From contig NC_135812.1 in assembly GCF_964213995.1 (NCBI RefSeq), positions 81,282,001 through 81,346,000 on the forward strand: DNA of 64,000 nt. The letters are read 5' to 3'. This document shows positions 42,313-59,748 of the stretch, piece after piece. Every line of letters starts with the position of its first letter. The first letter of the stretch is position 1. A model generated the notes under the pieces. That model ran no database searches. It worked only from the letters and a program-made list of their open reading frames with translations, and was not told where the DNA came from. The translations under genes were made by a program, and so were the position numbers. The DNA comes from Mustelus asterias (lineage: Eukaryota).

Positions 42313-42512
42313 NNNNNNNNNNNNNNNNNNNNNNNNNNNNNNNNNNNNNNNNNNNNNNNNNNNNNNNNNNNNNNNNNNNNNNNNNNNNNNNNNNNNNNNN
42401 NNNNNNNNNNNNNNNNNNNNNNNNNNNNNNNNNNNNNNNNNNNNNNNNNNNNNNNNNNNNNNNNNNNNNNNNNNNNNNNNNNNNNNNNNNNNNNNNNNNN
42501 NNNNNNNNNNNN
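42313..42512. other. Assembly gap (200 N)
   Basis: Run of N. Confidence 1.
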
Positions 42513-51645: not shown

Positions 51646-51784
51646 GAATTGGTTCAGAGTCACGCGTGCTGAGGAAGATGACAGATATGCTGGAAATAAT
51701 AGTGAAGCGGATGGAGCCACTGGCAAAACTGGAAAATGTGAGCGACTTCAGAAAGTTGGAGGAACTCAGCTCTGCTTTAAATCA
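51646..51784 (+). CDS. mgat5b: Internal coding exon of alpha-1,6-mannosylglycoprotein 6-beta-N-acetylglucosaminyltransferase B (GnT-IX/Vb), stem region
   Basis: Acceptor ttttcctgcattgatag| and donor |gtaagt; phase 1 to phase 2. Translation (G)IGSESRVLRKMTDMLEIIVKRMEPLAKLENVSDFRKLEELSSALN aligns with recalled human MGAT5B VMGGPESRGVLRKMSDLLELMVKRMDALARLENSSE. Not in the ORF track. Neighbouring exons were not found in the window. Confidence 0.88.
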
Positions 51785-54230: not shown

Positions 54231-54329
54231 TTAAATGTAAGTTATTGACCAATGAATACCAGAAAACATTTCTACATCAAAGTTTTCTTTTACTAAGAGC
54301 TATTTATGACATGATGTAATTATTATGAA

Positions 54330-54707
54330 GCCTTGGAGAGACGTAAAATGAGAGGAGACCTAATAGAGGTATATAAAATGTTGAGAGGCATAGATGGACT
54401 CTGAGGCTTTTTCCCAGGGTGGAAATGGCTGCTACGAGAGGACACAGGTTTAAGGTGCTGGGGTGTAGGTACAGGGGAAATGTTAGGGGGACGTTTTTCA
54501 CACAGAGGGTGGTGGGCGAGTGGAATCGGCTGCCGTCAGTGGTGGTGGAGGCAAACTCAATAGGGTCTTTTAAGAGACTCCTGGATGAGTACATGGGACT
54601 TAATAGGATGGAGGGTTATAGGTAGGCCTAAAAGGTAGGGATATGTTCGGCACAACTTGTGGGGCCGAAGGGCCTGTTTTGTGCTGTAGTTTTCTATGTT
54701 CTATGTT
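54330..54707 (+). mobile_element. CR1 3' fragment
   Basis: TRGHRFKVLG...FFTQRVVGEWN; ttctatgttctatg tail. Confidence 0.92.
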
Positions 54708-54714
54708 CACTCAC

Positions 54715-55178
54715 TTTTTTTGTCAATCCATGATGTCATTAGAACTCTTTAATTGAATCACTGCATAGTGACTCATTTCCAGAGATATATCGTCATCCCA
54801 ATCTATGAATTGTTTAATTGTGCTACCTTAGAAGGCTTATTATGTTCATTGTAACTGATACAGAGTATACTGTGTGCATTTGTATTGCAACTGCACACAT
54901 TACTTTTTTATGTTTCAGAGATTCATTTTAATAACTTCCATGCAGGTTAGAACCGACAGAACAGACATTACGGTTTGCCAAATAAAGCAATGTCATTTAC
55001 ATAAAGTTTAAAGTGGCCATTTCCATTGATTGTGAGGGGCTCCTTCTATTAATCGTTCCCAAGGTTTCCACTTGGCCATTTTATACGCCAGAGAAAACTC
55101 ATTCTCAGCCTATGAAATGACTTCCTCTATCTGCCCATGGTTGATTTTTTACGTTCTAGTTTTTAAACATCATGCTCC
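54715..55178 (-). pseudogene. ndufa5: Processed NDUFA5 pseudogene, 3' half with probable 3'UTR and poly(A) remnant
   Basis: Minus strand reads EHDV*KLERK(frameshift)[44 protein letters not shown], with the stop at 55008-55010, matching the NDUFA5 C-terminus (...QWKWPI). ATTAAA at 54748-54753 and an A7 run at 54715-54721. Confidence 0.9.
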
Positions 55179-58100
55179 TGTTGTGAAGTTGGGTAAAGTG
55201 ATTGTAGACTGGGAGGTAGGAAGTTAGAATTTGGTGTTTGTAAAGCTGTTAAATGCTAGGTGGGGAAAGCATTGCATGGTCCCATTAAAAGGTGGTGTGC
55301 TTTTTCTGTGCTTAAAATGCAAGTACATAGAGAGCTCAAACTGAAACATTTGTATCGAAAGGCCAAGCAGCAGTTTTACCAAAACAACAGGCTTTTGAAT
55401 TTAGCCAATCAATTTGAATCAGGCACTTAGATACCAAAAACCTATTACATAGAACATAGAACAGTACAGCACAGAACAGGCCCTTCGGCCCACGATGTTG
55501 TGCTGAGCTTTATCTGAAACCAAGATCAAGCTATCCCACTCCCTATCATCCTGGTGTGCTCCATGTGCCTATCCAATAACCGCTTAAATGTTTCTAAAGT
55601 GTCTGACTCCACTATCACTGCAGGCAGTCCATTCCACACCCCAACCACTCTCTGCGTAAAGAACCTACCTCTGATATCCGTCCTGTATCTCCCACCACGA
55701 ACCCTATAGTTATGCCCCCTTGTAATAGCTCCATCCACCCGAGGAAATAGTCTTTGAACGTTCACTCTATCTATCCCCTTCATCATTTTATACACCTCTA
55801 TTAAGTCTCCCCTCAGCCTCCTCCGCTCCAGAGAGAACAGCCCTAGCTCCCTCAACCTTTCCTCATATGACCTACCCTCCAAACCAGGCAGCATCCTGGT
55901 AAATCTCCTCTGCACTCTTTCCAGCGCTTCCACATCCTTCTTATAGTGAGGTGACCAGAACTGCACACAAGGTCCTGTACAGTTGCAGCATAACCCCACG
56001 GCTCTTAAACTCCAACCCCCTGTTAATAAAAGCTAACACACTATAGGCCTTCTTCACAGCTCTATCCACTTGACTGGCAACCTTTAGAGATCTGTGGATA
56101 TGGACCCCAAGATCTCTCTGTTCCTCCACAGTCTTCAGAACCCTACCTTTGACCCTGTAATCCACATTTAAATTTGTCCTACCAAAATGAATCACCTCAC
56201 ATTTATCAGGGTTAAACTCCATTTGCCATTTTTCAGCCCAGCTTTGCATCCTATCTATGTCTCTTTGCAGCCTACAACAGCCCTCCACCTCATCCACTAC
56301 TCCACCAATCTTGGTGTCATCAGCAAATTTACTGATCCACCCTTCAGCCCCCTCCTCTAAGTCATTAATAAAAATCACAAAGAGCAGAGGACCAAGCACT
56401 GATCCCTGCGGCACACCGCTAGCAACCTGCCTCCAATCCGAAAATTTTCCATCGACCACCACCCTCTGTCTTCGGTCAGACAGCCAGTTACCTATCCAAT
56501 CGGCCAACTTTCCCTCTATCCCACACCTCCTCACTTTCATCATAAGCCGACCATGGGGGACCTTATCAAACGCCTTACTAAAATCCATGTATATGACATC
56601 AACTGCCCTACCTTCATCAACACACTTAGTTACCTCCTCAAAAAATTCTATCAAATTTGTGAGGCACGACTTGCCCTTCACGAATCCGTGCTGACTATCT
56701 CGGATTAATCCGCATCTTTCTAAATGGTCATAAATCCCATCCCTAAGGACCCTTTCCATCAATTTACCAACCTCCGAAGTAAGACTAACCGGTCTATAAT
56801 TACCAGGGTCATTTCTATTCCCTTTCTTAAACAGAGGAACAACATTCGCCATTCTCCAGTCCTCTGGCACCATCCCCGTGGACAGCGAGGACCCAAAGAT
56901 CAACGCCAAAGGCTCTGCAATCTCATCCCTTGCCTCCCACAGAATCCTAGGATACATTTCATCAGGCCCAGGGGACTTATCGACCTTCAGTTTATTCAAA
57001 ACTGCCAAGACATCCTCCCTCCGAACATCTATTTCCTCCAGCCTATTAGCCTGTAACACCTTCTCTTCCTCAAAAACATGGCCCCTCTCCTTGGTGAACA
57101 CTGAAGAAAAGTATTCATTCATCACCTCGCCTATCTCTACTGACTCCATACACAAGTTCCCACTACAGTCCTTGACCGGCCCTAACCTCACCCTGGTCAT
57201 TCTTTTATTCCTCACATAAGAGTAAAAAGCCTTGGGGTTTTCCTTGATCCGACCCGCCAAGGACTTCTCATGTCCCCTCCTAGCTCTCCTAAGCCCCTTT
57301 TTCAGCTCATTCCTTGCTAACTTGTAACCCTCAATCGAGCCATCTGAACCTTGTTTCCTCATCCCTACATAAGCTTCCCTCTTCCTTTTCACAAGACATT
57401 CCACCTCTTTTGTGAACCATGGTTCCCTCACTCGGCCATTTCCTCCCTGCCTGACAGGAACATACCTATCAAGGACATCCAGTATTTGTTCCTTGAAAAA
57501 GTTCCACTTTTCATTCGTTCCTTTCTCTGACAGTTTCTGTTCCCAACTTATGCCCCCTAATTCTTGCCTAATCGCATCATAATTACCCCTCCCCCAATTG
57601 TAAACCTTGCCCTGCCGTACGGCCCTATCCCTCTCCATTGCAATTACAAAAGACACCGAATTGTGGTCACTATCTCCAAATTGCTCTCCCACAACCAAAT
57701 CTAACACTTGGCCCGGTTCATTTCCCAGTACCAAATCCAATGTGGCCTCACCTCTAGTCGGCCCATCCACATATTGTGTCAGGAAACCCTCCCGCACACA
57801 CTGCACAAAAACTGCCCCATCCAAACTATTTGACCTACAAAGGTTCCAATCAATATTTGGAAAGTTAAAGTCCCCCATGACAACTACCCTGTGACCCCAA
57901 CACATATCCATAATCTGCTTAGCAATTTCTTCCTCCACATCTCTATTACTATTTGGGGGCCTATAGTAAACTCCTAGCAACGTGACCGCTCCTTTCCTAT
58001 TTCTAACTTCAGCCCATATTACCTCAGTGTGCAGATCCCCCACGAAGTGCCTTTCCACAGCCGTTAAACTATTTAAATCTGATGGTTTTGACAATCTAGG

Positions 58101-58702
58101 ACCAATCTTATTGTGGGAAATATTGATATGTCATCATGGGTATAAAAGAAGGGAACATGGGGACAAAAAGACGAGAGCATCTGCCAAAGCTAACAGCTCT
58201 CGGCTCTAGAGAGAGAGAGAATTGTTGGCTCTCATAGCTTCATCTATGTCTAGAGAAAGCACCATCTAGATTGCAAAGGTACCAAAGACAAAAGAAGTTC
58301 CAGACAGAAGAATCAACAGAGAAGGCCTAGAATATTCCAGAAGACACCAAACCTAGTTGTAATTTCGAGAATGACTAAATTCTACCTTATTAATGAGTGG
58401 GGATTGTATTTATTTGAACAACATACCATTAGAATCTTGTTTTATTTGGGAATAGTTAATAGTTGGAAGGGACTTATTCGGGAATAGTTCATCATTTAGA
58501 TCATTTGTTCACTGTTAAATAAATTGTTACGCGTTGATTTTAGAGTGAGGGTCAGGGATTTATTTTGTATTTAACCACTAGAAGTTGCTGAAGAGCAGGT
58601 TACACCACTTCACACACTTTTACTGATTATAAAGCAAGGTACTCCTCTTTAGGTGTTTCAGTGTTAGTTCTCAGAGGCGCGATCAATCTCCGCTTTATAA
58701 CA
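55179..58702 (+). mobile_element. Solo LTR (about 0.9 kb after removing the nested CR1), Gypsy- or ERV-like
   Basis: TG...CA termini with imperfect inverted ends (tgttgtgaag / ctttataaca). 4-bp TSD CTCC at 55175-55178 and 58703-58706. TATAAAA at 58141 and AATAAA near 58518. Confidence 0.85.
55447..58072 (-). mobile_element. Young 5'-truncated CR1 (HER1-like) LINE: EN C-terminus, RT and 3' tail
   Basis: 717-aa ORF with [26 protein letters not shown] and FADD motifs. A small deletion near 55970 shifts the frame. (TTCTATG)n tail; ctatt repeated at both junctions. Confidence 0.97.
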
Positions 58703-58888
58703 CTCCAATTTTACCAAGTGAAACCGTTCATTGATGGTCTGCTCAGTATACTTTCTATAGGCTGCATCCTGAGGGATGGATTGCAGGACAGTAAGAATTC
58801 TGGAGTACAAAACTTTCAACATCTCATGAGGATTCTGGGCCATAGCAAAGCCCAGCAACTCAGGCGTTTTCTTCCGGATTCTAGCCAT
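58703..58888 (-). pseudogene. ndufa5: Processed NDUFA5 pseudogene, 5' half
   Basis: ATG at 58888 in good Kozak context. Intronless MARIRKKTPELLGFAMAQNPHEMLKVLYSRILTVLQSIPQDAAYRKYTEQTINERFHLVKLE resembles NDUFA5 (MAGVLKKTTGLVGLAV...AAYRKYTEQ). Ends at the LTR TSD. Confidence 0.93.
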
Positions 58889-59748
58889 TGCCACCACGGT
58901 GCACTGTGGGATCACATTGAGCCCATGAATACAGAAAATAATGTATTTTGCGTTAAGAATAATGGCGAGGCTATCAATGATGGCTATTATACACTAAATC
59001 ATATCACAACTTTCAGTGTCAATACAGGCAAAGTAAATCTGGAAAACTGTTGTCTGATTTGCCCTGCTCCTGAAGCTCCATGGACACCAGTATCTCACCA
59101 ATAGCCTGGGCATTGAAAGAAAATACAAGGGTATCAATTTGGGGCACTTTGTCATGAGATGCTTATGAAACATGCCAGAAAATGTTAAGGCCATTCTATT
59201 TAAGTGTAAGTGAATTTCTAAAAGTATGAGAAGTCACTGTTACTGCCAAACAACCTCTTTTACGCTGACTATTTACATTTGCAATTGTGGGGACTCATTC
59301 CTTCAAATTATAAATTTGTTGAAAATTCTTTCTAAAATTAAAATTTTAAACTTTTTTTATTTCTGTTTTTCTTTTTTTTGTGTCACGCTTATGGCCATCT
59401 TCCTTCATCTTTAATTTTCTGTACATGATTTTATGTTAAATTAAATATATTCACTTACAGTTCCTGCTTTAGACTCCACAGCACGGTAGGAGAGTCTCAG
59501 GATGGAGGTTTGATCCTATCAGAAGTTTACATGCGGACTCTCCTGGATTCTTCTAGGTCTTGTAGCCATTTAATACATTTAATGTGGTGGTACACCAACC
59601 TCTTCCCAAGAGGCCAAATAGTTGGCAGGCTTCACAACCCCTGGGGTGGGGATGGCCTCTCCGACTGTAGAAACTGCCACCATCTTCCAAAAATATAACA
59701 GCAGATGTAGGCCATTTGGCCTGTCGAACTTGTTCTGCCTTTCAAATA

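Follow-up and report, generated by a model that had tools for sequence, protein, structure and literature searches.

How did a copy of the gene ndufa5 come to lie in two halves, some 3.5 kb apart and antisense in an intron of mgat5b, and which enzyme put it there? The locus lies in a 64,000-nucleotide (nt) stretch of the Mustelus asterias genome (contig NC_135812.1, positions 81,282,001 to 81,346,000), which we call the window and whose numbering we use throughout. An earlier note on this DNA had described a three-layer nest, with a CR1 element inside a solo long terminal repeat (LTR) inside a complete NDUFA5 retrocopy. Our analysis bears this out: we are highly confident that the stretch is an intron-free, disabled ndufa5 copy split by a solo LTR, itself split by a young CR1. 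This confidence covers the nest and its order and excludes the enzyme that made the retrocopy. The parts of the nest are these:

54715..54903, no strand: unrelated flank with a chance ATTAAA (54748-54753) and A7 (54715-54721)
54904..54909, minus strand: poly(A) remnant A6, directly after the end of parent homology
54910..55178, minus strand: 3′ half of the ndufa5 retrocopy, comprising exons 4-5 and 3′ untranslated region (UTR), with two stops and a +2 frameshift
54927..54932, minus strand: ATTAAA polyadenylation signal, common to parent and retrocopy
55175..55178, plus strand: left copy of the target-site duplication CTCC, 4 nt
55179..55447, plus strand: left part of the solo LTR, Gmr1-like Ty3/Gypsy, its strand read off a two-LTR copy with a primer site and polypurine tract
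55448..58070, minus strand: very young, 5′-truncated CR1-type long interspersed nuclear element (LINE) with a TTCTATG-repeat tail and a 23-nt deletion at ~55970
58071..58702, plus strand: right part of the solo LTR, by homology to the LTR family
58703..58706, plus strand: right copy of CTCC, 4 nt, spanning the exon 3/exon 4 junction
58703..58913, minus strand: 5′ half of the ndufa5 retrocopy, comprising 25 nt of UTR, the ATG, and exons 1-3

A genome search with the two retrocopy halves returned 38 and 35 matches. Four exon-sized matches on contig C9, together with a separately located first exon, define the parent gene, which has five exons, GT-AG introns, and an intact 116-residue protein. 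Following the check that the earlier note had proposed, we removed the insert and one CTCC and aligned the rejoined copy to the spliced parent mRNA. The alignment is collinear from 58913 to 54910, crosses all four exon junctions, and shows 89% identity; a count over 438 columns gave 43 differences. Neither of the outcomes that the note had named as refuting, a loss of collinearity or an intronless parent, was seen. The copy has the features of a processed pseudogene: introns are present in the parent and missing here, the frame is disabled by two stops, one frameshift, and one insertion, and the copy stops at the poly(A) site, where a remnant of the A tail follows; that site is placed from the ends of sibling copies rather than from RNA.

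The two stops and the frameshift had been assigned to the 3′ half, and we located them there: a TAA at 55163-55165, the +2-nt frameshift within 55147-55156, and a TAG at 55110-55112, with the natural stop codon at 55008-55010. The 5′ half begins with an ATG at 58888-58886 on the minus strand and stays open for 62 codons (PF04716, E 8e-17), also as described before. Parent homology ends at 54910, past the ATTAAA, and the A6 follows. Most sibling copies end at mRNA positions 557-571, which is the same poly(A) site. The retrocopy therefore ends at 54904 and not at 54715, where the earlier description has its start. We rejected the latter end because the second ATTAAA and the A7 lie outside parent homology; the 189 nt down to 54715 gave no match to the parent 3′ flank (score 18, against a mean of 20.7 and a maximum of 27 in 100 shuffles).

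Between the halves, the CTCC copies flank an element that starts with TGTTG and ends with TAACA (55179-58702), in agreement with the TG...CA element seen earlier. The duplicated bases are the final base of exon 3 and the first three bases of exon 4, and a BLAST comparison of the insert with parent intron 3 (1,220 nt) found no match. A duplication across the exon 3/exon 4 junction and the lack of an intron 3 match together argue that the element entered an already spliced copy.

The right half of the LTR drew 2,833 first-look candidates in the genome, of which 40 were scored. Its two halves are adjacent in 19 examined copies, placing the CR1 inside an unbroken unit of ~900-930 nt from which one base was lost; copies of the family measure 870-946 nt, and contigs from sequencing runs show the same extra LTR base as the unbroken copies. 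Exact 4-nt duplications flank half of the copies with both ends called (8/16, three of the 19 having been dropped for a missing end call). These duplications are often GTAC, GTAT, ATAG, or AGCT (L052-L070), which suggests a target preference. On C13, a copy serves as 5′ LTR in a two-LTR element (L053 + L071). The two LTRs are identical at 842 of 927 positions, and the element carries a primer-site-like motif and a purine tract; this relative is 82-87% identical to the LTR halves in the window. Another copy, L068, which we initially took for a 3′ LTR, is a solo LTR flanked by a 4-nt duplication. The window element has what marks a solo LTR, namely TG...CA ends, a duplication within the 4-6-nt range, and homology to both ends of a full element.

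The decayed frames of the two-LTR relative encode, in order, SCAN, an integrase zinc finger, an integrase core, reverse transcriptase (RT), and RNase H. On this domain order in one relative, rather than on an RT tree, we class the family as Gmr1-like Ty3/Gypsy, for which a SCAN gag followed by integrase before RT-RNase H is characteristic. Passages in the literature describe the Gmr1-like order (bioRxiv 10.1101/2025.03.03.638093) and report SCAN in over half of frog Gmr elements (PMC4131045). The likeness extends to the TG...CA ends and the 4-nt duplications. The family differs from that model in that the window has only a solo LTR and the decayed relative has no detected protease domain: a 132-residue frame between its gag and integrase gave no Pfam match. 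The primer-site-like motif led us to consider an endogenous retrovirus. Such viruses encode RT-RNase H before integrase, and we rejected this identity because integrase precedes RT in the relative.

The LINE inside the LTR had been called near-intact, a description that does not hold. Its family reaches a length of at least 4,147 nt, of which this copy retains 2,623 nt; it has no ORF1, begins at about residue 120 of the ORF2 frame (the first ~119 residues are gone), and carries a 23-nt frameshifting deletion shared by none of 11 compared copies. Against the same 11 copies it shows 8-11 mismatches in ~2.6 kb. It has no target-site duplication, and one LTR base is lost at the site. Joints of 55447 to 58071, as an allele without the CR1 would give, occur in three sequencing runs, where they are indistinguishable from thousands of unbroken LTR copies. 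CR1 LINEs have short tandem-repeat tails. We name the element CR1-type from its architecture and such a tail rather than from a tree. The architecture comprises an ORF2 with endonuclease and RT, a tandem-repeat tail, and an esterase-type ORF1 found only in fuller copies (e.g., L097); the 5′ truncation and the missing duplication are further likenesses to the clade.

The junctions place the retrocopy before the LTR and the LTR before the CR1. Divergence, which the earlier note had recommended for dating each layer, gives the same sequence. The retrocopy differs from the majority of its sibling copies at 37 of 437 positions (8.5%). The right half of the LTR is 11.0% from its nearest copy and on average 12.1% from its 19 best copies, or ~6% per lineage, and the CR1 diverges by 0.3-0.4% pairwise. 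Judged by junctions and divergence, the order retrocopy, LTR element, CR1 that had been proposed is very probably right. The formation of the solo LTR before the arrival of the CR1, part of the same proposal, is likely, as suggested by the large age gap rather than by a direct date.

In organism E, two runs of one sample yield a 619-nt contig that matches 54708-55208 apart from 24 differences (~95% identity). It includes retrocopy and flank and reaches 30 nt into the LTR, one less than the bridging rule of the tool demands. The retrocopy is therefore older than the split from organism E, and the LTR insertion probably is too.

These data give the following history. A spliced ndufa5 mRNA was reverse-transcribed, starting at its poly(A) tail, and the product entered an mgat5b intron in antisense orientation, by an enzyme whose nature we infer below. 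A Gmr1-like Ty3/Gypsy element then integrated at the exon 3/exon 4 junction, duplicating 4 nt, and recombination between its LTRs would have left the solo LTR, as the two-LTR relative and the many solo copies imply. Much later, to judge from divergence, a 5′-truncated CR1 entered the LTR without a duplication. Two points weigh against this history: the 4-nt flanks of the two-LTR relative itself differ at two of four positions, and the timing of solo-LTR formation is a deduction.

The window copy is one of many. We fetched 35 other ndufa5 loci, among which 11 with common flanks are one duplicated clade and two more pairs share flanks, giving ~24 independent insertions with the window's included. 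All members of the clade go back to one retrocopy that was duplicated along with its flanks; the 11 copies lie on C71 and small contigs and fall into three or four subgroups (L020-L023, L027, L029, L046-L050). At least one exon junction is crossed in 22 of the 24 independent copies; the remaining two cover the last exon only and end in A runs. When the 27 rows exceeding 300 nt are placed in a tree, bootstrap not settled, its shape is star-like and the branch to the parent is short. Siblings lie 4-15% from the majority, apart from a single copy at 27%. Interruption of ndufa5 retrocopies is common: inserts longer than 150 nt occur in seven other independent copies, or 8/24 counting the window's. 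With the same profile method, NDUFA5 gave 13 matches among 70 candidates and RPL21 gave 6 among 13, a hint, from one comparison gene, that ndufa5 is unusually often copied.

Which enzyme made these copies was left open by the earlier note, which saw no L1 in the region. Within the 64-kb window we likewise found no Tx1-like body, but L1-clade Tx1-like LINEs are abundant in the genome. The puzzle is weaker now that young, poly(A)-tailed L1-clade LINEs with long ORF2s are known to be present. The genome holds 1,389 zf-RVT candidates, and all 150 of those scored exceed the cut-off. These elements have an ORF2 of 1,144 amino acids, which scores 287 bits to human L1 ORF2p versus 81 for the CR1, and an ORF1 with RNA-binding and CCHC domains. 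Their 3′ ends carry AATAAA and short A tails. Duplications of 7-17 nt flank five of eight young copies tested (a ninth was untestable, and one negative was bounded at an internal break), and a U2-headed repeat matches four of nine 3′ flanks. The mammal-type L1 ORF1 domain PF02994 had no matches in the genome, a search in which the control also matched nowhere.

A CCHC ORF1, an L1-like ORF2, a poly(A) tail, duplications, and a target preference together point to the Tx1 clade, a label that rests on these features rather than on a tree. Tx1 is placed in the L1 clade in the account of Ohshima 2013 (PMC3747384), and Kojima 2015 (PMC4494074) describes U2-targeting Keno and the target preferences of Tx1 elements. 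The shark elements resemble Keno and its SINEU partners, as those two papers present them, in their L1-clade ORF2, poly(A) tail, and insertion beside U2-derived sequence. They differ in lying outside the window and in a target choice that looks relaxed (4/9 flanks U2-headed). The U2-headed repeat itself is ~290 nt or more long, with heads derived from U2 small nuclear RNA and an A tail like the Tx1-like tail (L118-L124). It has at least 2,150 candidates, the best 40 at 97-100%, is often tandem, and shows duplications of 12 and 8 nt in two of seven copies; it looks like a shark SINEU-type element. At C24:44.82-44.93 Mb, 15 zf-RVT matches spaced by 8,035 nt form a tandem array with an L1-clade LINE unit, either real or an assembly effect.

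We lean, by a modest degree, toward an L1-clade (Tx1-like) enzyme having acted on polyadenylated ndufa5 mRNA. L1-clade elements exist in the genome and may have been active when the copy was inserted. On C11 near 111.428 Mb (L113), a U2-headed repeat unit is split by a young RPL21 retrocopy that ends in A9 and has, by eye, a duplication no longer than 5 nt. Several observations count against such an enzyme. The RPL21 case is one of four copies, was spotted after the fact, and lies in the repeat tail, not in the U2 head. No ndufa5 copy abuts a U2-headed repeat, the nearest being 170 nt off. The Tx1-like family examined, mostly 94-99% alike, is of more recent origin than the ndufa5 copies, whose 3′ end is unlike the Tx1-like tail (p 0.41). 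Finally, none of 19 independent ndufa5 copies reaches duplication score 9 (mean 6.13 versus 6.08 for the null; five of the 24 were left out for want of a usable end). Retrocopies made by the L1 clade have target-site duplications of ~7-20 nt. Simulated duplications of 12-15 nt at 8-12% decay reach score 9 in 36-70% of cases, and power falls to 5-17% for those of 8 nt or less. The duplication candidate of the window copy, at 6 nt, equals the null mean. A junction-anchored test for short duplications found no excess (permutation p 0.29), with 5′ ends over-extended in at least three of 19 copies, the window's included. Because the ndufa5 copies are without long target-site duplications, the enzyme is not pinned down.

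The same nest might instead have begun with ndufa5 mRNA copied by an enzyme of the CR1/L2/RTE group or placed at a pre-existing break, a possibility that we take seriously but somewhat doubt. It would account for the lack of a duplication excess in the 19 copies. It also fits the nested CR1, which has no duplication, and the short one in one of two 5′-truncated young CR1 copies, as well as three young RPL21 retrocopies that, by eye, show no duplication or 5-6 nt. CR1 or Tx1 is said to sustain retroduplication outside mammals in a 2026 preprint, a companion of PMC13320880 (10.64898/2026.06.26.734816), a link given in section 5 of that work as a correlation. Yet the 3′-complete ndufa5 copies stop at the mRNA poly(A) site; most have a short run of A there, no CR1 tail repeat was seen, and their 3′ end is unlike both CR1 tails that were compared (p 0.09 and 0.82). 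Duplications no longer than 8 nt would mostly go undetected at such low power, and in the passages of Casola and Betran 2017 (PMC5470649) that set out retrocopy hallmarks, CR1 is said to depend on its own 3′ end. A bolder version, which we consider unlikely, holds that ndufa5 mRNA was a favored substrate of a now-silent non-L1 machinery, a CR1/L2/RTE-type burst having copied poly(A) mRNAs. It draws on a set of ~24 mostly near-full-length copies that includes no young one, has ages of 4-15% with a single exception, and shows short A tails without long duplications.

Far less probable is a role for the open 5′ half, either as a truncated retrogene that was kept or as an antisense regulator of mgat5b, with the LTR as its possible driver. 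The appeal of this reading lies in the 62 open codons, whose frame runs 12 codons into the LTR before a stop, making 74 residues. But the 5′ half has accumulated 14 nonsynonymous and five synonymous changes, a ratio of nonsynonymous to synonymous change (pN/pS) of 0.88 in a small sample of 62 codons. In simulations of substitutions only, the chance of its staying free of stops was 0.53, and it is also open in three of 16 sibling copies. The LTR, moreover, lies downstream of the 5′ half and faces the opposite way. The open 5′ half needs no selection to explain it, we found no pointer to function at the locus, and these counts suggest that the retrocopy is likely neutral. A partly processed or segmental copy with a derivative of intron 3 between its halves deserves almost no credence: the insertion does lie within 3 nt of the exon 3/exon 4 junction, and the end of the LTR together with the duplication resembles the parent splice acceptor by chance, but the missing match to intron 3 refutes it, the first three exon 4 bases already follow exon 3 on the 5′ side, and the insert, whose ends match, belongs in full to a large LTR family.

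Two features lie outside the nest:

51646..51784, plus strand: mgat5b coding exon, residues 71-117 of P0001, with AG/GT ends, identified by homologues
54304..54708, plus strand: 3′ fragment of a CR1 of another subfamily, 68% identical to the nested CR1 over 370 nt

The exon is 94% identical to shark MGAT5B proteins and gave no Pfam match. The next mgat5b exon directly downstream was not located; further MGAT5-family exons lie downstream on the plus strand at C12:81.71-82.10 Mb, starting ~370 kb away. With these later plus-strand exons, the copy is intronic and antisense, as had been claimed, and sits in the intron that follows the window exon. The genome has three MGAT5-family genes (C2, C12, C14), and mgat5b on C12 extends more than 760 kb from the window exon to its last exon match. 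The CR1 fragment faces the nested CR1, their tails forming a 60-nt, 87% inverted repeat 740 nt apart, and it seems absent at this place in organism E, whose contig stops fitting at 54708. A 200-N assembly gap occupies 42313-42512 of the window.

A Vertebrate Genomes Project (VGP) preprint (PMC13320880) counts 14,081 retrocopies in cartilaginous fishes, and its method joins, as a matter of routine, fragments that insertions of as much as 6 kb have separated. In elephant shark, L2, CR1, and short interspersed nuclear elements are reported as prevalent (PMC5381603). ndufa5 is absent from the top cartilaginous-fish parents named in the relevant passage of the VGP work. Among the retrocopy papers found, no title concerned shark ndufa5, and a further set of papers did not contain the word "NDUFA5". 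The ndufa5 copies resemble LINE-made processed pseudogenes, as portrayed in PMC5470649 and PMC13320880, in being intronless, disabled, dispersed, and ended at the poly(A) site; they differ in their short A tail and in having no detectable long target-site duplication.

The locus holds known element types in a neutral processed pseudogene undergoing ordinary decay. It makes a clean teaching case, gives relative ages for three element families, and, with the same retrocopy in the organism E contig, is possibly a presence/absence marker. A single locus gives no answer to which LINE makes shark retrocopies; the 24-copy ndufa5 set offers a test bed for that question. If the burst that we consider unlikely were true, a CR1/L2/RTE-type enzyme would have done what such enzymes are thought not to do.

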